Of a stretch of 64,000 nt of DNA, positions 29,833-62,509 are shown one piece after another. Both the position numbers and the translations under genes were made by a program. Each line of letters opens with the position of its first letter. Position 1 is the stretch's first letter. The stretch comes from an uncultured Candidatus Saccharibacteria bacterium (GTDB lineage: Bacteria; Patescibacteriota; Minisyncoccia; SW-4-49-11): NCBI GenBank assembly GCA_964585065.1, contig CAZPCB010000002.1, forward strand, positions 1,006-65,005. The letters are read 5' to 3'. The notes beneath the pieces are model-generated. The model was given only the letters and a program-made list of their open reading frames with translations, made no database searches and had not been told where the DNA came from.

Positions 29833-30948
29833 TTATCTGTTAGCAGGTATTGGACTACCTATAGAATACTGTTTTATTAATCTATCTGGTATGGTTATTA
29901 CAAGGTCCGGTCTAAATGCATAAGAAGTTAATATGTCTAGACTATTTACAGGTCTTATGATATTTCCTTCAAAAACATATATTTGTGAAGAGTTTTGAGA
30001 CTTGACAAGAGTATATAATGCAGGAACCCTTGTATTTTTACCTATATTACTAGAGTTATTAGTTGGGATATTGTTCATATCAAAAGTACTAGCAGGCTTT
30101 ACTTGCCCCCAAGAAAGTCCTAGGCTCTCAAAAATTTCTGGGCTATATATTGGTACTTTTTTATTATTTTCAGTTACCCATACTGTACCCTCTCCTGATA
30201 TCAAAACACCATCTCGAATAGTAACATCTCCTTTTTCACTTGGATTATATACAGGTGCTACAGGAAGAGATAAATCTACCGTTTCATTCCACTTAAACCT
30301 CGATTCAAATACTAAAGGAGATGGTATGTATCTTCTCTTATCATCCTCAACTAAATACATTTTACCTCCTCCTGTTTTAATCACCACTCCATCTGGATAA
30401 TTAGATGTAATAGTTACGAGTTCTCCTAGTGGATGAAGATTGAGTTCAGCATCAGATACAGCTTTAATATTACTCCACTTAAAGCCTAATCTGAGAAAAG
30501 CAGCTGGAGAAGCTATAGGCCTTCTAAGTCCATTTGAGATAATATAAACTGTACCTTTATTAGACAATAAAGACCCATCTCTAAATTTTAATTGCTCTCC
30601 ATCAGGAATAGAAGCTATATCCTCTCTAGAAGTTACAATTAAACTATTCCAGTTTAATCCTCTAGATTCTACTATAGCTGGGGACTCTATTGGTCTTTTT
30701 TTAAAATTATCTAGATAATAAACTTTTGGATTAGTGTTTGATTTAATTAGATTTCCGTTAGGAAAAGCCTTACCTGCTATTTCATTATATTCTGCAATAT
30801 CTACTAAATTTTCAGGGTCTGCACAGCCAGGTACATCATCAGCTCTAAATATTGTACAGGTTGCAGTGACTGCCTCACCATAAGGTACAAAAACAAAAAA
30901 TATCCCGATAAATATTGAGCTTAATAATAATTCTTTCTTTAATTTCAT
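29833..30948 (-). CDS. secreted protein with four internal ~50-aa repeats
   Basis: Signal peptide/TM (LLLSSIFIGIFFVFVPYGEA); repeated motif G.(V/M)Y....(N/D)..RPI.SP..F.S.G..W..V occurs four times. Confidence 0.5.
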   Translation of the reverse strand: MKLKKELLLSSIFIGIFFVFVPYGEAVTATCTIFRADDVPGCADPENLVDIAEYNEIAGKAFPNGNLIKSNTNPKVYYLDNFKKRPIESPAIVESRGLNWNSLIVTSREDIASIPDGEQLKFRDGSLLSNKGTVYIISNGLRRPIASPAAFLRLGFKWSNIKAVSDAELNLHPLGELVTITSNYPDGVVIKTGGGKMYLVEDDKRRYIPSPLVFESRFKWNETVDLSLPVAPVYNPSEKGDVTIRDGVLISGEGTVWVTENNKKVPIYSPEIFESLGLSWGQVKPASTFDMNNIPTNNSSNIGKNTRVPALYTLVKSQNSSQIYVFEGNIIRPVNSLDILTSYAFRPDLVITIPDRLIKQYSIGSPIPANR

Positions 30949-30981: not shown

Positions 30982-30993
30982 CCCCCCCCCCCC
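30982..30993. repeat. homopolymeric C12 tract (G12 on the coding strand) 34 bp upstream of the 29833-30948 start
   Basis: tta-tcccccccccccc-gattttg; unique in this AT-rich window. Confidence 0.9.
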
Positions 30994-31049
30994 GATTTTG
31001 TATAGACTAGTTATCCACAATTTAAATAGTTGTTATAATATAATCCTAG

Positions 31050-52871: not shown

Positions 52872-53981
52872 TTAATCTCGAATTGGCATTATAAGATAAA
52901 AGAAATCTGGAATATCAGGACTTTTGAGAATAACAGGAGAATCCGTATCATTAAGGTTGAATTGTATTGGCTTATCTTGGAATAATTGTATACCGTCCAA
53001 AAGATAATTATAATTAAAGGCTACAGCCAAATTAATTTCACCCGTACTATGTATAGGTAATTTAGTGGTATTAGCTCCAACTTGAGAATCTGAAGAACTA
53101 ATGCTCAAAGTACTATCATCTTGAATAGTTAATTTGACATCATGAACCGTATTCTGAGAGAATACTGAAGCTAATTTTATAGCCTGTACTAATTCCTGAC
53201 TATCTATATCAAATAATGTATTGAATTTTTGAGGAATAAGTCCTTCATATTGAGGAAAATTCCCTTCAATTAATTTTGATACTATTTCTACCGTATCAGC
53301 AATAATATGTATTTGAGAAGCTCCAAATTGTAATGTCACTTCTACTTCTTCTAGGGCGTCCAATACTCGAATAATTTCTGCTACTGTTTTACTTGGAATA
53401 ATAAGAGAAAAATTTTCTTCAGCAGGACTTGATAAAGTAATTCTCTTTTCACTAAGTCGAAATCCATCAGTTCCAACAAAAATTAATTGCTGATCTTTTT
53501 TTGCAATATATACTCCGGAAATTTCTGGGCGAAAATCATTTTTAGGTAAAGCACCATATACTGTCTTGAGAGCTTGCTTCAATTCTATACTTCCTACCAC
53601 TAATTGCTTATTTGCTTCTATTTGGGGAAGTTGTGGGAATTCATCTGCAATAATACCTTTGAATTCAGCAGTAATATCTTTTCCTTGTTCTATAGTAAGT
53701 TTATCATCTACAACCGTTAAATCTAATTTATCTTGTGGTAAATTTCGAATATAGGCAAGTAAAGTATCTTGAGGAATACAAATAGCCCCTTCAGCTTCTT
53801 CTTTTCCTCTAATATGTACCCGTATTCCAATTTCTAAATTGGTGGAGCTAATTGTGAGTGATCCTTTATCTCCTTGTAATAAAAAGGTTTGTAAAACTGG
53901 TAATGTTGTAGCTCGTGAAGAACTTTGCCGAGCTATACTCAGTCCCTTTAAAAGATTTTCTTGCAAACAGGTGAATTTCAT
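52872..53981 (-). CDS. dnaN: DNA polymerase III beta sliding clamp
   Basis: 369 aa, three-domain architecture, N-terminal MKF.C....L; immediately downstream of dnaA. Confidence 0.85.
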   Translation of the reverse strand: MKFTCLQENLLKGLSIARQSSSRATTLPVLQTFLLQGDKGSLTISSTNLEIGIRVHIRGKEEAEGAICIPQDTLLAYIRNLPQDKLDLTVVDDKLTIEQGKDITAEFKGIIADEFPQLPQIEANKQLVVGSIELKQALKTVYGALPKNDFRPEISGVYIAKKDQQLIFVGTDGFRLSEKRITLSSPAEENFSLIIPSKTVAEIIRVLDALEEVEVTLQFGASQIHIIADTVEIVSKLIEGNFPQYEGLIPQKFNTLFDIDSQELVQAIKLASVFSQNTVHDVKLTIQDDSTLSISSSDSQVGANTTKLPIHSTGEINLAVAFNYNYLLDGIQLFQDKPIQFNLNDTDSPVILKSPDIPDFFYLIMPIRD

Positions 53982-54331
53982 ATCTTCTCTATCTTACTCT
54001 ATTTCTATATATGTATTATACCTTGAATAATTCCTTTTTTCTAGTTTATTTGTTTTCTTGTCCTTTATTTATATAAAGTATAATAGTAGATAGTAGTATG
54101 TGTGGAAAAGCTGAAAACTGGTTTTTGACCGCATAAATACTGTGTGTCAAGTGGGGATATCATTTGGGATAAGTCTCTTATAACTTTGGGGATAAAACAG
54201 AGTGGGAAAAATCTCTGTGGATTAAGTCCTATTTATACACAATAGTATTCACAGAAATCTAGTGATTTTATATAAGTTATACACAACTTATTAACAATAG
54301 TTAAGGAATTACAAAGGAGGTTTTTTCTGTA
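53982..54331. promoter_or_regulatory. AT-rich dnaA-dnaN intergenic region with a cluster of DnaA-box-like 9-mers (each one mismatch from TTATCCACA/TGTGGATAA): candidate oriC segment
   Basis: tgtggaaaa (54099), tggggataa (54186), tgtggatta (54217), ttatacaca (54233 and 54267). Confidence 0.5.
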
Positions 54332-55774
54332 TTATGAAGATGCGGGATTTTCCTCATTATATAATTTATTTTTTAATAACGTAATATCTTGCTCAAGACT
54401 GTAATTGGTTACAATATCCTTTTTTACCTTATTCCAAGCATGCATAACTGTGCTATGATCTTTACCCCCTAATAATTCTCCAATATTAGGAAAAGTAAGC
54501 TTTAATTCTTCTCGAATTAAGTACATCGCAATTTGCCTTGGTATTGCGATATCTTTTTTACGGCTTTTAGACAATAAATCTTCTTTGGTAATATGAAAAT
54601 GTTCAGCCACGGTATCGAGAATCATATCAGTGTTCACAATACGTTGAGAATGAATTTGTCCCCCTTCAATTAACTTATCTACTAATTCAGGAGTAACTTT
54701 GGCTCCTAGAAGTTGTACTCGTCCAATAATTTTATTTAGAGCCCCCTCTAATTCACGCACATTGCTTCGTATGCGCTCAGCAATGACATAAATAATATCA
54801 TCATCAAGATGAAAATTCTTTTGAATACATTTACTTTTAAGAATAGCTACACGAGTTTCAAATTCTGGAATAGCTACATCCACAATCATACCTCCTTCAA
54901 ATCGAGACTTTAATCTATCATTTAAAGTCTTTATAGCACTTGGTGGTCTATCACTTGTGAATACAATTTGCTTATTATGAGCATAAAGTTCATTAAAGGT
55001 ATTAAAAACCTCATATTGAGTAGCCTCTTTACCCCCAATAAATTGAATATCGTCAATAATCAAGAGATCAACAGCTCTATGCCGAGCTTTAAAATCTTCC
55101 ATACGTCCATTTTTGAGAGAATTCATTAAATCTGAGATGAATACATCTGAGGTAACATACAGGATATTCTTATTCTTTTTATTGAGACTATTCGCAATAG
55201 CTTGAATAAGATGAGTTTTCCCTAATCCCACACCTCCATAAATAAATAAGGGATTATAACGAGTTCCAGGCTCATTTGCAACTGATTGAGCAGCAGCATG
55301 GGCAAGTTCATTGGATGATCCCACAATAAAATTTTCAAAAGTATAATTCTCTTTTAAGAGAGCAGTTCCACTGGGCTTAGCAGGGATAATAGTAGGCTCA
55401 GCATATTGATAATTGGGATCCGTATTCTCATTATTCTGCTTTTCCTCTATTTTAGACTTTTTCTCCTTTAATTCTTTATCTTTGAGGTTAATAACAGATT
55501 GAATAGCTTTAGGAGATTGTTTTTGGGTATTTTGAACTACATATTTTACCCGTTTTATAGAACCGGTAATCTTTTGAATGGAGTTTAGAATAGTAACATT
55601 AAATTTATTCTCAAGCCAATCCCGTGTAAAGGCGCTTGGTACGCAAATTACAATTTCTTTATCATCCATACTTATGGGATAAGTATTTTTGATCCACGTA
55701 TTAAACTGAGGTTTACTGATATTGAGTTCTATCTCACCTAATACTGAGTTCCAAACTCTTTGTTTCTCGTCCAT
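54332..55774 (-). CDS. dnaA: chromosomal replication initiator DnaA
   Basis: 480 aa; AAA+ GGVGLGKTHL; C-terminal DNA-binding domain. Confidence 0.95.
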   Translation of the reverse strand: MDEKQRVWNSVLGEIELNISKPQFNTWIKNTYPISMDDKEIVICVPSAFTRDWLENKFNVTILNSIQKITGSIKRVKYVVQNTQKQSPKAIQSVINLKDKELKEKKSKIEEKQNNENTDPNYQYAEPTIIPAKPSGTALLKENYTFENFIVGSSNELAHAAAQSVANEPGTRYNPLFIYGGVGLGKTHLIQAIANSLNKKNKNILYVTSDVFISDLMNSLKNGRMEDFKARHRAVDLLIIDDIQFIGGKEATQYEVFNTFNELYAHNKQIVFTSDRPPSAIKTLNDRLKSRFEGGMIVDVAIPEFETRVAILKSKCIQKNFHLDDDIIYVIAERIRSNVRELEGALNKIIGRVQLLGAKVTPELVDKLIEGGQIHSQRIVNTDMILDTVAEHFHITKEDLLSKSRKKDIAIPRQIAMYLIREELKLTFPNIGELLGGKDHSTVMHAWNKVKKDIVTNYSLEQDITLLKNKLYNEENPASS

Positions 55775-55997
55775 TGCAATCGTCTAAATTGATGATGTTG
55801 ATAATCTGTGGATAAGTTGATTTTATTATACGCTATTGCAGGATTTTTGCAAAGATATCCCCATTAAAGATTGAGTATAAGCTATAATTCACTTTGAATT
55901 CACTTTCAAAAATAACCCTCCCTCAACAATACGGTATTATATCTTGACTTTCTCTTAATAATAAGCTATAATATGCAACAAGTCTATCGTTATATAT
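55775..55997. promoter_or_regulatory. dnaA/rpmH divergent region: one perfect DnaA box and a consensus sigma70 promoter for rpmH
   Basis: TGTGGATAA at 55807-55815; TTGACT at 55944-55949, 17-bp spacer, TATAAT at 55967-55972. Confidence 0.55.
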
Positions 55998-57252: not shown

Positions 57253-58683
57253 ATGACATTAAATAAGAAATTAGCCCTGAATAGTATTATCCAAATTTTA
57301 GGTAAATTTGTGATGATAGTAGTTGGGTTTATTTCTATACGTATACTCACCACCACATTGGGAGTAGAAGGATTTGGAGCTTATATTACTATTACTAGTT
57401 ATCTCATTATCGCGAGCGTAATCGCTGAATATGGATTTAATGCCTTACTCACCACCGAAATCGCCGGTAAAAATGAGGAAGAAGCAGGACATATTGTAAA
57501 TAATCTATTCACTGCCCGCCTGTTAATGGCAATATCCATAATTGGTATATTTGCCTCTTTGGCTGTATGGCTTATCCCATCCTATTCTACAGAGGTGAAA
57601 TGGCTAGTTGCTCTTGGGGCTATAGGAACAATAGGATCATCATTATCTCAGGTTTTGGTAGGAGTATTTCAGACCAAATTACGCACAGATAAAATCACTA
57701 TAGGAGATTTTATTGCCCGAATCACATTAACTGTAGGAGTTATTCTTCTTGCCCTACTTGGTACGGTGAATTTATTCTGGGTAATGGTAGTATATAGCAT
57801 AGCAGGAATTGCTCAGGCTATTTTTGTCATATCCGCCACTTATAAATATTATCCTCTCAAACTCACTATCGATTGGCCTTATTGGAAATATATATTCAAA
57901 AAAGCCTTTCCCCTCTTTATTATTATTACCTTTAATCTCATCTATTATCGAATAGATGTCATTATGTTATCCATAATGAAAGATCAAAGCGCAGTGGGAT
58001 TATATGGAGCTGCTTACAAAATCCTTGAAGTTTTAATTGCTCTACCTGGAATGTTTATGGGATTATTATTACCCCTATTTGCAAAATATTATAAACAAGA
58101 CCGAGAGAGATTCAAACATGTATTCCAGCAAGCTTTTAATATCCTACTCACTATCGCAATACCATTAACCGTAGGAGGAATACTATTATCTGGTAAAATA
58201 CTGGAACTTATTGCAGGAGCAGAATTCCTCCCTGCTACCGCTACATTACAAATCTTATTTGTAGGAATAGGGTTTATATTTATGGGGAATCTTATGGGGC
58301 ATATCTTAATAGGAGCTGAGTTTCAGAATAAAAGTATGTATATTGCTATTATTGGGGCATTCTTTAATGTAGGGCTTAATCTCTATCTTATACCCCGATA
58401 CTCCTATTTTGGAGCTGCAGCAGCAACCGCTATAACAGAGGGATTGGTCCTTATTAGCTATATTTATCTGGTTAGGCGATATGTAAAATGGTTCCCACGC
58501 TTCCAATGGATACATATACTGACACTTGTCGCCACTGCAATAATGGGAATAGTATTATATGTAATACATGATTGGAATATATTTCTTCAATCGGTGATAG
58601 CGGTATTAGTATTTGGGCTTACTCTTCTTCCCCTTGGAATTAATCGACTAAAACAGTATTATGCCATCAATATTCAAGAATAA
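57253..58683 (+). CDS. MOP-superfamily polysaccharide/lipid-linked-oligosaccharide flippase (Wzx/MurJ-like)
   Basis: 476 aa, ~14 TM; N-terminal ..LNSIIQILGKF.. Confidence 0.6.
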   Translation: MTLNKKLALNSIIQILGKFVMIVVGFISIRILTTTLGVEGFGAYITITSYLIIASVIAEYGFNALLTTEIAGKNEEEAGHIVNNLFTARLLMAISIIGIFASLAVWLIPSYSTEVKWLVALGAIGTIGSSLSQVLVGVFQTKLRTDKITIGDFIARITLTVGVILLALLGTVNLFWVMVVYSIAGIAQAIFVISATYKYYPLKLTIDWPYWKYIFKKAFPLFIIITFNLIYYRIDVIMLSIMKDQSAVGLYGAAYKILEVLIALPGMFMGLLLPLFAKYYKQDRERFKHVFQQAFNILLTIAIPLTVGGILLSGKILELIAGAEFLPATATLQILFVGIGFIFMGNLMGHILIGAEFQNKSMYIAIIGAFFNVGLNLYLIPRYSYFGAAAATAITEGLVLISYIYLVRRYVKWFPRFQWIHILTLVATAIMGIVLYVIHDWNIFLQSVIAVLVFGLTLLPLGINRLKQYYAINIQE

Positions 58684-59452
58684 AACCATATCATTCATTA
58701 TAGTCTCATATAAGACGAAACATTATCTAGAAGATTGTATCAAAGCTATTATCTCATCTACCACAGGAGATTATGAGATAATAGTAGTCGAGAATAATTC
58801 AAGAGAGAATTTAGATAGCCTCCAAGACTTATCCACAGAAAGAATACATATTGTGTATTCAGATAAAAATGCTGGATTTGGAGCCGGAGTAAATATAGGA
58901 GCCACTAAAGCTACAGGTTACTGGCTATGCTTTATTAATCCCGACACCAGAATACAAGGAGATATCCACACTTTATCCACAATGAGTGAAAATACGGGGA
59001 TAATTGGACTGGCTCTTGTGGATAACAATAATCATATACAAGATTATCAGTATGGAGCTTTCCCCACACCACAAAGTATAATCACCAATACTGCTAAAAA
59101 GACTTGGCAAATGCCCACAGATCAGACGATTTCTACCGATTGGGTAAGTGGAGGGTCACTATGTATAGAGACTGCTTTATTCCGCGAACTTGGAGGTTTT
59201 GATGAGCAATTCTTTATGTATTATGAAGATATAGATTTATGCCAGCGAGCTAAACAAATAGACAGAGACATAGAATGGACACAACAAATAACTGTCTGGC
59301 ATCAAGAAGGTGGATCTGAGAGTAATATCAAGAGAACCAAGGAGAGATATTATACTGCCCAGAGAAAATATATCGCAAAATGGTATAGTGATTATTGGAA
59401 TCTCCTCCTAATGCCAATACATTTGGGATTATTAATCAGAGGAAAGTTTTAA
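58661..59452 (+). CDS. family 2 glycosyltransferase
   Basis: FIIVSYKT..YEIIVVENNS, DxD region (YYEDIDL); overlaps the flippase gene by 23 nt. Confidence 0.75.
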   Translation: MPSIFKNKTISFIIVSYKTKHYLEDCIKAIISSTTGDYEIIVVENNSRENLDSLQDLSTERIHIVYSDKNAGFGAGVNIGATKATGYWLCFINPDTRIQGDIHTLSTMSENTGIIGLALVDNNNHIQDYQYGAFPTPQSIITNTAKKTWQMPTDQTISTDWVSGGSLCIETALFRELGGFDEQFFMYYEDIDLCQRAKQIDRDIEWTQQITVWHQEGGSESNIKRTKERYYTAQRKYIAKWYSDYWNLLLMPIHLGLLIRGKF

Positions 59453-59510
59453 AACTTAGATTTTAAAGGTATAATATAGCAAGTAGTCGTAATAATGTAT
59501 AAATCTGGGT

Positions 59511-60377
59511 ATGAATTTAGAAGATAATGTAAATAAACATAATAATTATGTCATTAACCCCCTAACTAATGAGGAGTTAAATGGTTTTTTAGATGATAAA
59601 TCAAGAGATATTATTAAATATTTTATTGTTAAGTCATTATTTTCTCAGCCTGAACCAAAATTAGATCAAAATCAAATCCCCATACAGATACCTAAAGAAC
59701 ATGTTGAACAATGGTTTACACAAGCTCTCAATGTTCACTCTGTTGGTGCTGGTTCATACCCTATTGATATATATAACTTGGAACAAAAATGGGGTGCAGA
59801 TATTAAGATGTTAAATATTAAAGTAGATAAATTTGGAAATATTACAAATAGTAGTAGTGGTGAAGCTTCTCTAGGTCAAAAATTTACAGGACCAGGCATT
59901 GATCTAGATACTTGGTTTGCTCAAAAAGAATATAAAAAAATTAAAGATAGTTGGGTTAATCTATACAATGAGAAATATAACTCAATTAAAGATAAATATG
60001 AAATTAATAAAATCTATTACTTTTTTATACTAAGACCAGGTACTCAGGTAGAGGGGGCAGATTTCTATTTTACAGGAGCTATTATTGATTTAGATAATCT
60101 TCATAAGATTGAAGTTAATAAGAAAAAAACAACGAGTAAATCTGTATTTCTAAATCATTTTATCGATAATGATTATGGGAACATAAAGATTTATAAAGCA
60201 AAGAAAAGACTTGAGCTGAGACTAAATCCAAAGAAATGGATAGAAAATGGATTTTCTCTTAAAATATCTACTTCATTTCAAAATAAACCTATTAATCTAA
60301 GAGACGACTATACAGATAGTTATCTAGATGATCGTATAGATCAATTAAAAAATGTCACTATTAACTTTATAGAATAA
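59511..60377 (+). CDS. hypothetical protein; candidate partner (restriction endonuclease?) of the convergent LexA-methyltransferase
   Basis: 288-aa ORF ending 6 bp from the methyltransferase stop codon; no recognisable motif, so the assignment is positional only. Confidence 0.25.
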   Translation: MNLEDNVNKHNNYVINPLTNEELNGFLDDKSRDIIKYFIVKSLFSQPEPKLDQNQIPIQIPKEHVEQWFTQALNVHSVGAGSYPIDIYNLEQKWGADIKMLNIKVDKFGNITNSSSGEASLGQKFTGPGIDLDTWFAQKEYKKIKDSWVNLYNEKYNSIKDKYEINKIYYFFILRPGTQVEGADFYFTGAIIDLDNLHKIEVNKKKTTSKSVFLNHFIDNDYGNIKIYKAKKRLELRLNPKKWIENGFSLKISTSFQNKPINLRDDYTDSYLDDRIDQLKNVTINFIE

Positions 60378-60383
60378 CTAAAT

Positions 60384-61952
60384 CTATTTCATTGCTTTCA
60401 TCATTTGTTTAGCAACAGCTTCAATAACGGGTACACTAACTGAATTCCCCGCTTGTTTATATAATGCAGAATCTGAAATATTTGGCAAAACATAATTCTT
60501 AGGAAATCCTTGAATTCTAAAGCACTCCAAAGGGGTTAACTTTCTAATACCTTTAGAATCCTTAATTATAGGTACATTATGTCCACCCATACCCATATTT
60601 GCAGTTAGTGTTGGACAAACCCCACTTTTATTTTCTCTAACATATTGTCTACGCCACTGGTAAACCTTTCCTTCTTCAACTACAAAATCTTTAAGTCTCT
60701 CAAATAGAGGTTTATTATTGTAATAATATTTTTCAGGAACATCTTTTTCCAGAAGATTAATAATATTTGTGGTTAGCTTTACTGGAGTAGGAAATTCAAA
60801 CTTATCAAAATAATATTTATTTTTAAAGCCTACAATATAAATCCGCTCTCTATTTTGTGGAATATTCCCATACTCCATGGTATTTAGAACCTTAGACCTT
60901 ACATAATAACCTAGTGATCTAAGAGTTTCCTCAATTACTTTGAATGTATTTCCCCCATCATGACTTTTTAGATTTTTAACATTTTCAAGCATAAATCCTT
61001 CTGGTTTTCTAGCTTCAATAATTTTTGCTATATCAAAAAATAAGTTACCTCTATTTTTGGGATCATCAAAACCTTTTCTATAGCCAGCAATTGAAAATGC
61101 CTGACAAGGAAATCCCCCTAAAATAAAGTCAAATTTGGGTAAATCATCTATTCCAACCTTTCGAATATCTTCTACAACAAGTTTAGATTTTTTAAAGTTT
61201 ACATCATAGGTATCTTTACATTTCGCATCAAAATCATTTGCAAATACCGTTTCAAATCCAGCATTTTCAAAACCAAGACGAATCCCCCCTACTCCAGCAA
61301 AAAGATCAATAGTCCTAAATCTAGGTATATTTTTTTGAATTTCTGGATGTATAGATTGATTAACAATATTGCTAATTACTTGAACTACAACACCTCTCAC
61401 CTCAACTTCTTTTCTATAAAATGGTAAAAGGTTTTGATTTCTAGGCTCAAGTCTAAACCTATCTTTTTCCCGATAGATTTTTTTTAGTGTGGCTTCATTA
61501 TCATCTATGATAGCAACCACAGTCTGCCCATTTTCTGCAACAGACTGCTTTTTAATAATAACAATATCACCATCAAAAATACCCTCATCAACCATACTAT
61601 CACCAGCTACTTTTAAAGCATAATAACCTTCAGAGGATCTAATACTAGGATTTACAATTGAAACCGTATTATCAATATTTTCTATTGCTTCGATAGGGCT
61701 TCCTGCAGCGATAATCCCAATAATAGGTATCTCTAGTATAGATTTTACATTTATTTGTGGAGACAAGGTTCTTGCTGAGTTTGAGAGATAACCTTTTAAT
61801 TTTAAGGTATTAATATGCTCATGAACTGTCGATACAGCCTTAAGATTTAAGTGTTTACGAATCTCTTCTATGGTAGGAGCTACACCAACCTCATTGATAT
61901 ATGAAGTTATGAAATCAAATACCTCTTTTTGTTTTTTTGTTAGTGTTGACAT
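60384..61952 (-). CDS. fusion protein: complete LexA-like repressor (wHTH + S24 autopeptidase) fused to a C5-cytosine DNA methyltransferase
   Basis: Residues 1-~195 carry LexA features: an N-terminal HTH, an AAG cleavage site (GIIAAGSP), Ser (GDSM) and Lys (ATLKK). Residues ~205-522 carry methyltransferase motifs I DLFAGVGG, IV GGFPCQAFS, VI ENV, VIII QNRERIYIVG, X GNSV. It is a single stop-free frame with an ATG start. Confidence 0.75.
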   Translation of the reverse strand: MSTLTKKQKEVFDFITSYINEVGVAPTIEEIRKHLNLKAVSTVHEHINTLKLKGYLSNSARTLSPQINVKSILEIPIIGIIAAGSPIEAIENIDNTVSIVNPSIRSSEGYYALKVAGDSMVDEGIFDGDIVIIKKQSVAENGQTVVAIIDDNEATLKKIYREKDRFRLEPRNQNLLPFYRKEVEVRGVVVQVISNIVNQSIHPEIQKNIPRFRTIDLFAGVGGIRLGFENAGFETVFANDFDAKCKDTYDVNFKKSKLVVEDIRKVGIDDLPKFDFILGGFPCQAFSIAGYRKGFDDPKNRGNLFFDIAKIIEARKPEGFMLENVKNLKSHDGGNTFKVIEETLRSLGYYVRSKVLNTMEYGNIPQNRERIYIVGFKNKYYFDKFEFPTPVKLTTNIINLLEKDVPEKYYYNNKPLFERLKDFVVEEGKVYQWRRQYVRENKSGVCPTLTANMGMGGHNVPIIKDSKGIRKLTPLECFRIQGFPKNYVLPNISDSALYKQAGNSVSVPVIEAVAKQMMKAMK

Positions 61953-62033
61953 ATTGACAATATTATTTATTTTCGCTACAATTATATTATATCCGAAAAA
62001 TAACCGAAATGTAAAGCTTAGTTATCCACAATT

Positions 62034-62222
62034 ATGGACAGAGATAAAAAAATTAAATATTGGATAGATAGATTAATAATAAAAAATGCTGGAGTGCATT
62101 TATTTATATTCATTACGATATGTGCAATTCCATTAGCAGGATTTGAGATATTATTGAATGGTTATTATCAATTAGCATTTGTATCAACTGTAATTATAGA
62201 AGCATTAAATCCGACAAAATAG
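62034..62222 (+). CDS. possible small membrane protein
   Basis: 62-aa ORF with one hydrophobic segment. Confidence 0.25.
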   Translation: MDRDKKIKYWIDRLIIKNAGVHLFIFITICAIPLAGFEILLNGYYQLAFVSTVIIEALNPTK

Positions 62223-62266
62223 AGTAGTTAATAAGGCCTAATCAATAGAAGAGACAATCGAGTAGT

Positions 62267-62509
62267 ATGACAAAAGATGAGGTGATACGTAAATTAAAGA
62301 ATAAAATAGCTGAACTTCAATTAGAGCCCGATACATTGATTGAAAGCACAACTGATAATACCGATATATTATCTTTGGTAGATAAATATAATCTTATGGT
62401 ACATATGATGAATAAAGCTGTTGATACTCAATTGGAATATATCCCTTATGAGCCTACTATACAGGAAATAGATGATATAATAGCTAGAAATAATACTCTG
62501 AGTAATTAG
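62267..62509 (+). CDS. hypothetical small protein
   Basis: 80-aa ORF. Confidence 0.35.
   Translation: MTKDEVIRKLKNKIAELQLEPDTLIESTTDNTDILSLVDKYNLMVHMMNKAVDTQLEYIPYEPTIQEIDDIIARNNTLSN

Follow-up and report, generated by a model that had tools for sequence, protein, structure and literature searches.

Organization of the fusion gene

The window analyzed here, a stretch of 64,000 nucleotides from an uncultured Candidatus Saccharibacteria bacterium (assembly GCA_964585065.1, contig CAZPCB010000002.1, positions 1,006 to 65,005), carries a gene in which a complete LexA repressor, made up of a winged helix-turn-helix (HTH) DNA-binding domain and an S24 peptidase domain, runs without interruption into a C5-cytosine DNA methyltransferase. 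It is near certain that this fusion is real and that it lies inside a restriction-modification system. The comparisons described below suggest that the protein represses its own gene and that this repression would be lifted after DNA damage by RecA-stimulated self-cleavage. The gene, which is the methyltransferase (M) gene of the system, and its parts are as follows (aa, amino acids; ORF, open reading frame).

60384..61952, minus strand: LexA-S24-C5 methyltransferase fusion, the M gene (ORF list, Pfam, NCBIfam, at least 120 clusters of the same architecture)
61782..61952, minus strand: LexA winged-HTH DNA-binding domain, aa 1-57 (PF01726, 1.9e-16)
Within 61782..61952, minus strand: predicted recognition helix S41-T-V-H-E-H-I47 of the winged HTH (ST[IV]HEH[IVL] in 118/120 listed clusters)
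61701..61706, minus strand: codons of Ala83-Gly84, the predicted self-cleavage site, opposite E. coli A84-G85 (codons read from the sequence)
61383..61727, minus strand: Peptidase S24 domain, aa 76-190, with Ser119 (GDSM) and Lys157 (ATLKK) (PF00717, 4e-27)
61320..61382, minus strand: variable linker between S24 and methyltransferase domains, aa ~191-211, the sole poorly conserved stretch of the alignment
60399..61319, minus strand: C5-cytosine DNA methyltransferase domain, aa 212-518 (PF00145, 6e-91, full profile)

The gene occupies positions 60384-61952 of the minus strand, a strand left unstated in the preliminary description of this locus, and encodes 522 aa from an ATG start with no internal stop. 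The stop-to-stop frame extends up to 62021, and the first ATG agrees with the N-termini of homologues. From the letters alone, the locus had been read as a single-ORF fusion of LexA to a C5 methyltransferase; Pfam and NCBIfam searches confirm all three domains, and the LexA and Dcm motifs that had been pointed out (IIAAGSP, GDSM, ATLKK, FAGVGG, PCQ, ENV, QNRER and GNSV) are all present. Methyltransferase motifs I, IV (PC283Q), VI, VIII and X follow one another in the canonical, non-permuted order, with the target-recognition region placed between VIII and IX.

The TIGR00498 lexA equivalog model scores 170.9 bits over aa 1-196 (NCBIfam cut-off 110.95), and the methyltransferase part scores 334.5 bits against TIGR00675 (dcm; NCBIfam). 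When E. coli LexA is aligned with the N-terminal 205 aa, the two are 33% identical end to end, and A83-G84, S119 and K157 of the fusion fall opposite A84-G85, S119 and K156. A sequence search of the PDB returned LexA chains covering aa 1-194 and, as the best match for the methyltransferase part, M.HhaI (aa 207-516, 4e-61). By every sequence criterion the N-terminal half is LexA, and the catalytic half belongs with the ordinary C5 methyltransferases of the Bsp6I group.

Conservation of the fusion family

Homologues were taken from a collection of 5.8 billion proteins clustered at 90% identity. At least 120 clusters, which are 521-561 aa long and 75-99% identical to the query, combine LexA_DNA_bind, Peptidase_S24 and DNA_methylase, and their sources, which are metagenomes, assign the listed ones to Parcubacteria, Paceibacterota, Moranbacteria or the 'Patescibacteria group'. 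Annotation divides over them, NCBI labeling homologues 'transcriptional repressor LexA' and JGI 'DNA (cytosine-5)-methyltransferase 1'. The fusion, for which a search of related genomes had been proposed, is thus no one-off, and the module to which it belongs is present in hundreds of Patescibacteria. It was not found among IMG/VR viral contigs, PLSDB plasmids or GenBank phages.

A frameshift or a lost stop that merges a lexA gene with a dcm gene, in assembly or in sequencing, would produce the same reading frame, and one related locus (L100, described below) indeed has a lexA-like gene and an M gene apart, with a vsr gene between them. Such an artefact is, however, vanishingly improbable here. 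The preliminary description had named a stop or frameshift at the join as grounds for refutation; there is none, and in a Logan assembly made separately from run SRR8942238 the same sequence recurs, with 100% identity across 5425 bp, the intact ORF included. The frame is likewise uninterrupted, with a linker of similar length, in the independent sequences of at least 120 clusters, which come from many studies, and it was on the breadth of these independent sequences that the artefact was excluded. As had been stated for the window, no start or stop codon separates the two halves. Within the segment covered by this check, from the end of S24 to motif I, a Met occurs in only 5 of the 120 listed clusters. 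With no conserved internal ATG at the junction, most methyltransferase is probably produced as the fusion itself or by cleavage of it.

Among the 120 listed clusters, the Ser nucleophile (G[DEN]SM), the Lys base ([AT]TLK) and the methyltransferase motifs PCQ, ENV, QNRER and FAGxGG are kept in every one, GNSV in 119 and the xAG cleavage site in 117, and variation is confined to the ~20 aa between the LexA and methyltransferase halves, a linker whose length is similar across clusters. The retention of cleavage site, dyad and methyltransferase motifs around a variable linker indicates selection on both activities, proteolysis included.

These counts also bear on the possibility that the LexA module is a dimeric autorepressor and nothing else, its S24 domain being kept for dimerization and having no link to DNA damage. 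Autorepression alone suffices for control of the SsoII/EcoRII type, and some LexA homologues, such as that of Synechocystis, no longer undergo cleavage. Drift of the catalytic residues would be expected, however, if cleavage were unused, and dimerization requires neither the dyad nor the cleavage site; their strict conservation argues that proteolysis is used, and we regard the purely autorepressive reading as rather unlikely.

When clustered at 50% identity, all members fall into a single full-length cluster, apart from fragments, as is seen in a tight family that has spread recently and not in an ancient housekeeping lineage; by this measure the fusion family is of the former kind.

A mobile restriction-modification module with exchanged nucleases

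In addition to the window, we compared 24 loci of the fusion family, which represent 22 distinct sequences, and three loci that belong to a second fusion family, reading 3-10 kb of flank for each. In every locus read, a convergent gene abuts or overlaps the end of the fusion gene, and the remaining neighborhood (FtsZ, ClpP, ATP synthase, a UvrD-like helicase and others) is unrelated between loci. The abutting genes fall by Pfam into at least six unrelated families, listed here with the loci of the first fusion family in which they occur.

RE_Bsp6I partner, 187-203 aa (annotated variants up to 203): L005, L006, L008, L009, L010, L088, L089, L091, L092, L093, L096
PDDEXK_5 partner, 149-163 aa: L001, L002, L004, L095
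RE_NgoFVII_C-containing partner, 378 aa: L013
Partner with no Pfam match, 345-349 aa: L003, L017, L087, L090
Partner with no Pfam match, 360 aa: L007
Partner with no Pfam match, 271-288 aa: the window, L011, L012, L086

Near-identical methyltransferases (75-82% identity) are therefore paired with at least six unrelated nuclease families (L001-L017, L086-L096), which to judge from the sequences is a clear case of nuclease genes being swapped beside a conserved M gene. A controller (C) gene, encoding an HTH_3 protein of 72-73 aa, lies just upstream of the nuclease gene in L001, L007, L008, L088, L090, L092 and L249, and closely similar 73-aa C proteins precede three of the nuclease families (PDDEXK_5, the 360-aa type and the Bsp6I-like type). 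A vsr gene lies near the system in L017 and L100. In GC-richer hosts the GC content of the fusion gene is below that of its flanks, for example 0.378 against 0.469 in L005, and the fusion proteins remain 75-82% identical across hosts that the sources place in different candidate phyla. These comparisons give good support to a mobile type II restriction-modification module that keeps its M gene, the fusion, and exchanges its restriction (R) gene; its identity as such follows from the abutting convergent nuclease found everywhere, from the swapped R families, and from the C protein and vsr present in some loci.

In the window, the abutting gene is the following.

59511..60377, plus strand: candidate partner restriction endonuclease, 288 aa, convergent with the M gene, its stop 6 bp from the M stop

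No C gene adjoins this gene. Its product has no match in Pfam, PADLOC or PDB sequence searches and has 428 homologues, all of them without a Pfam or functional name, those named by source all being from Patescibacteria. It carries a PD-x10-DxK motif, and fold comparison, which alone was informative, gives the PD-(D/E)XK fold of restriction enzymes for a structure predicted from an alignment of database homologues. ORF 59511-60377 is on these grounds a candidate for the restriction nuclease of the system.

The methyltransferase target is probably GCNGC, given the nucleases that partner the family and those that lie beside its plasmid relatives. Nucleases of the Bsp6I family and of the NgoFVII type partner the fusion in several loci, and two more distant relatives are themselves RE_Bsp6I-methyltransferase fusions. 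Plasmids pAF22 of Lactococcus cremoris and pTM1 of Bacillus altitudinis carry the closest annotated methyltransferases in PLSDB, with 55-56% identity, and each of these adjoins a 'Bsp6I family type II restriction endonuclease'. Bsp6I cuts GCNGC and NgoFVII cuts GCSGC (REBASE). Against this assignment, which is drawn from partner and neighbor families, stands the observation that the window shows no depletion of GCNGC (observed/expected 0.86); no site stands out there for palindrome depletion, GCGC being at 0.73.

Promoter and predicted operator

The features upstream of the two convergent genes are the following.

61986..62015, minus strand: fusion promoter, -35 TTTACA (62015-62010), 18-nt spacer, -10 TATAAT (61991-61986)
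61993..62008, minus strand: predicted operator, direct repeat TTCGG-N6-TTCGG with an 11-bp period, filling the -35/-10 spacer
62021..62030, minus strand: perfect DnaA-box sequence TGTGGATAAC, just upstream of the fusion -35 (exact 9-mer)
61954..61982, plus strand: opposite-strand promoter-like site TTGACA-17-TACAAT in the fusion 5' leader, pointing at the operator and DnaA box (11/12)
59448..59475, plus strand: promoter-like site TTTAAA-16-TATAAT upstream of the nuclease gene, a weak assignment (consensus scan 10/12)

The fusion promoter is the best promoter-like site of the interval 59300-62400 (11/12), and every main-family locus has its promoter arranged in this way. The space between -35 and -10 is the classical position of a repressor site. 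The repeat that fills it is conserved base for base in its arrangement in 16/16 main-family loci, the flanking bases varying, and TTCG-N7-TTCG stands at -48 to -56 from the ATG in all 16. The remainder of the ~204 kb of main-family loci contains 8 scattered TTCG-N7-TTCG matches, none of which was assigned to a repair-gene promoter. Within the 64-kb window the direct repeat occurs once, and it is absent from the region upstream of uvrB. A more distant subgroup (L009, L010, L011 and L092) carries TTTCTA-N5-TTTCTA at the same place of the promoter, and the predicted recognition helix changes with it, STAH[YHF][YH][IV]K pairing with TTTCTA and ST[VI]HEHI with TTCGG. The base-for-base conservation, the fixed position, the uniqueness in the window, the co-variation with the helix and the co-transfer with the LexA module (see the second fusion family, below) together lead us to predict that the direct repeat is the operator of the fused HTH. 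LexA boxes that are direct repeats with an 11-bp period are established, as GTTC-N7-GTTC, in Alphaproteobacteria (PMC8565304), and the canonical Gram-positive SOS box CGAAC-N4-GTTCG gave chance-level matches only, with 2 mismatches.

The position of the operator, together with the genomic contexts described above, can be used to judge whether the fusion serves the organism as its true, and possibly its sole, LexA, in command of an SOS regulon, with the methyltransferase as a passenger or as a means of adding methylation to the damage response. The protein scores as a lexA equivalog, and NCBI names its homologues accordingly. The preliminary description had remarked that no separate lexA is visible in the window, which holds: there is no other LexA-like ORF in the 64 kb, nor in any locus flank. 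We nevertheless consider a general LexA quite improbable. The gene is found in non-syntenic neighborhoods, is always paired with a restriction nuclease whose family changes between loci, has a GC content below that of its flanks in GC-richer hosts, and keeps 75-82% protein identity across hosts named as different candidate phyla. Within the window the predicted operator marks this one promoter and is missing upstream of uvrB, other matches in the ~204 kb of main-family loci are few (8) and scattered, and a family that forms a single full-length cluster at 50% identity is unlike a vertically inherited housekeeping regulator. The earlier suggestion of a methyltransferase moonlighting as the cell's LexA is disfavored on the same grounds of a non-syntenic context, swapped nucleases and a predicted operator at its own promoter.

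As regards the nuclease gene, the TTCGG repeat is absent at its promoter-like site in the window, and direct control of this gene by the LexA module is not visible there. A good copy of the operator repeat, TTCGGTATATTTTCG, was seen in L090 (4893-4907), in the 3' end of the C gene and ~30 nt before the nuclease start; this copy, which is the sole hint of direct R control by the LexA module, may be there by chance. No terminator-like site was found between the convergent M and R genes in the window, so that stronger M transcription may interfere with transcription of R.

A second fusion family and a split locus

A second fusion family of ~1041 aa (P0241, P0391-P0393) joins the same LexA module to another C5 methyltransferase and an Eco57I-type N6 methyltransferase. 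Four clusters of it were found, with loci L247 (4001-7126), L248 and L249 (2167-5301), in which a convergent abutting gene encodes 395-400 aa and one of which has a C protein. Bacteroidales and other groups widely carry the methyltransferase partner of this family with no LexA attached. Upstream of the fusion gene, L249 carries TGTGGATAAC, then TTCAG-N6-TTCGG and then TATAAT, and L247 has a promoter TTGACA-17-TACAAT followed by both repeats in inverted orientation.

The split arrangement of L100 (2808-5957) places, on one strand, a 207-aa lexA-like gene, vsr, a 318-aa methyltransferase, whose best-aligning segment shows 65% identity, and a nuclease of the NgoFVII type, and its promoter has the palindrome AAACATGTTT in place of the direct repeat. 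The fusion may have arisen from such a split version or given rise to it. Across ~250 loci with relatives of the methyltransferase, a LexA-like ORF was seen only as the fusion or in L100. The LexA module occurs on at least two different methyltransferases and alongside nucleases of six or more unrelated families, and in these comparisons it behaves as a portable regulatory cassette.

Proposed mechanism

We put at about 0.6 the probability of a model in which the fusion acts as the repressor of its own gene until, after DNA damage, RecA-stimulated self-cleavage ends the repression. LexA dimers are made through the S24 domain, and the fusion protein would dimerize in the same way, whereupon two winged-HTH domains could occupy the tandem TTCGG half-sites, blocking RNA polymerase. 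The level of methyltransferase would thereby be self-limiting, as in enzymes of the SsoII and EcoRII types, and in a new host cell, where no repressor is present at entry, M would be made at once. When RecA filaments form as a result of DNA damage, including breaks made by the module's own nuclease when methylation is insufficient, the Ser119/Lys157 dyad would cut the Ala83-Gly84 bond; the DNA-binding domain would be freed, the promoter would open and more enzyme would be made, with the S24-methyltransferase fragment presumably remaining active. Stronger M transcription might also dampen expression of the nuclease. The net effect would be a damage-triggered shift to protection, a type II counterpart of restriction alleviation.

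The two halves of this model differ in strength. Autorepression is likely; it is an established form of restriction-modification control when exerted through the N-terminal HTH of a modification enzyme (PMC3874152). Damage induction is plausible, with the balance slightly in its favor. Unbalanced restriction-modification activity induces SOS (PMC3874152), which would close a feedback loop in which breaks made under lagging methylation raise methyltransferase synthesis. Where the preliminary description had proposed damage-responsive control of methylation or of a partner nuclease, the former is the part best supported by the anatomy, that is, by the predicted operator and the conserved cleavage machinery, and the latter is not visible as direct control.

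Several points weigh against the model. First, binding, dimerization, cleavage, and the activity and stability of the fragments are all deduced from sequence, and the AlphaFold model of the whole fusion was unusable (mean pLDDT 56.7, S24 region <50, from a 24-sequence alignment). Second, the co-variation of helix and repeat involves two groups only, 16 loci against 4, two of which are near-identical. Third, the scans for the operator covered the window and the locus flanks, and a wider regulon in the carrier genomes is possible. Finally, the cleavage fragments of LexA are degraded by proteases in E. coli; if the S24-methyltransferase fragment shared this fate, damage would lower methylation.

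The last point leads to a suicide or abortive-infection switch, in which RecA-activated cleavage would cause the methyltransferase fragment to be degraded or mislocalized and the stable nuclease would then kill the cell. Restriction-modification systems are toxin-antitoxin-like, and an unstable M strengthens post-segregational killing (PMC3874152). Such an outcome nonetheless appears distinctly unlikely, given that cleavage would also derepress the gene and raise synthesis, that the cut falls ~130 residues before the methyltransferase domain and leaves that domain intact, and that no degron is indicated in the sequences. E. coli LexA fragments are protease substrates, and it is from these that the case for fragment loss is drawn.

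The proposed derepression may also be extended into a full damage sensor of a type II system, in which RecA filaments cut off the DNA-binding domain, a burst of methyltransferase follows and the convergent nuclease gene, with no terminator to separate it, is shut down by the same event, the filaments arising from the system's own off-target cuts, from repair synthesis or from incoming single-stranded DNA. This extension is tentative, and we hold it doubtful as a whole. If it were true, it would be the first circuit for restriction alleviation or autoimmunity feedback described for type II systems, the conserved DnaA box (see below) would also tie methylation to replication initiation, and the fusion could be the sole RecA-responsive repressor in Patescibacteria without a separate lexA.

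Relation to known systems

M.SsoII, M.Ecl18kI, M.EcoRII, M.MspI and M.ScrFIA have an N-terminal DNA-binding domain, an operator overlapping their own promoter, and self-repression (PMC3874152), an organization resembling that predicted for the fusion. In the main review of how restriction-modification systems are regulated, the N-terminal HTH extensions listed are all short ones of this kind (PMC3874152). Whereas SsoII/EcoRII-type enzymes have a short HTH and no protease domain, the fusion has a whole LexA of ~195 aa with cleavage site and Ser/Lys dyad, and it thus adds a dimerization domain and a potential inducing signal, RecA filaments. Homology of the fusion HTH to SsoII-type HTH regions was not found, no aimed comparison having been made.

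With the LexA of E. coli and Thermotoga maritima the fusion shares the domain order, the cleavage site and the dyad, and it scores above the TIGR00498 cut-off. Its predicted box is a direct repeat with an 11-bp period, as are the GTTC-N7-GTTC boxes of Alphaproteobacteria, and its placement in the gene's own promoter is autoregulatory, as for LexA. Unlike LexA, the fusion is joined to an enzyme and sits on a mobile module, and no regulon beyond its own promoter was seen in the available sequence.

The methyltransferases of Bsp6I/LlaDII/Fnu4HI-type systems (GCNGC) and NgoFVII-type systems (GCSGC; sites from REBASE) are related to that of the fusion and share RE_Bsp6I or RE_NgoFVII_C partners with it, but they have no LexA extension, and the nuclease of the window is of a different, uncharacterized PD-(D/E)XK family. 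Compared with systems controlled by C proteins, a C gene is present in some relatives of the fusion but not in the window, and the LexA module would control M and not R. Lambda CI and SetR of SXT offer a functional analogy, in that a mobile element uses the RecA signal of its host, but both are free-standing proteins whereas the repressor of the window is fused. Type I restriction alleviation brings about a similar shift to protection after damage, but through proteolysis of the restriction subunit and not through methyltransferase induction.

That such a fusion had not been described, as was first supposed, agrees with our search: no paper on a cleavable SOS repressor fused to a methyltransferase was found in the literature searched, which included few subscription papers, so that a prior mention is possible. 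Methyltransferases that repress themselves are textbook matter, as are repressors of mobile elements that respond to RecA by cleavage; it is for their combination that we found no description. Restriction-modification systems must keep methylation ahead of cutting, and of their known controls, namely C proteins, short HTH extensions and antisense RNAs, none senses self-inflicted damage. A RecA-cleavable repressor on the methyltransferase, if it acts as proposed, would provide type II systems with direct feedback from DNA breaks to protection, the end that type I systems reach by restriction alleviation, and the module is abundant in Patescibacteria, which are small-genome and mostly uncultured bacteria. 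There is also a caution for annotation, since automated annotation names such a protein after one of its halves, 'LexA' or 'DNA methyltransferase', and the former name would inflate counts of SOS regulators in these lineages.

DnaA boxes and other features

The DnaA box upstream of the fusion promoter recurs at -71 to -78 from the ATG in 14/16 main-family loci; the loci with the upstream box are L003-L008, L017, L086-L092, L096 and L249, and in L247 the box is placed between the repeats and the ATG. As its position is kept in unrelated genomic contexts, the box, on this comparative evidence, travels with the module, and it may couple methyltransferase expression to DnaA and replication.

Other DnaA boxes lie elsewhere in the window, where the exact sequence TGTGGATAA was found 9 times in 64 kb. 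The region 52872-55815 is a replication origin region, with dnaA (54332-55774) and dnaN (52872-53981) on the minus strand, five near-consensus boxes between them at 54101-54285, and more upstream of dnaA at 55796-55815. A family-2 glycosyltransferase gene (58661-59452) contains three exact boxes and one with a single mismatch (58829-59025), which precede the nuclease gene by ~500 bp.

The opposite-strand promoter-like site in the fusion leader recurs at the same offset in most main-family loci and could be a competing or antisense promoter; in L247 it is a TTGACA-17-TACAAT promoter that drives the fusion gene itself. The conserved sequence TGTAGCG that follows the fusion -10 is the complement of the -10 of this site. 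A GTAGCG box at this place might be taken for a methylation site or a second operator site, but it varies among loci and is probably better read as the opposite-strand -10.

Divergent from the fusion gene are two small ORFs of 62 and 80 aa with no family match (62034-62509, plus strand), and in most other loci the upstream neighbor is likewise divergent, but unrelated. Finally, a run of 12 G (30982-30993, minus strand), with a TGTGGATAAC box (31010-31019) on one side and an AT-rich -10-like region on the other, precedes a 371-aa ORF without a Pfam match (29833-30948) and resembles a slippage-prone promoter tract.

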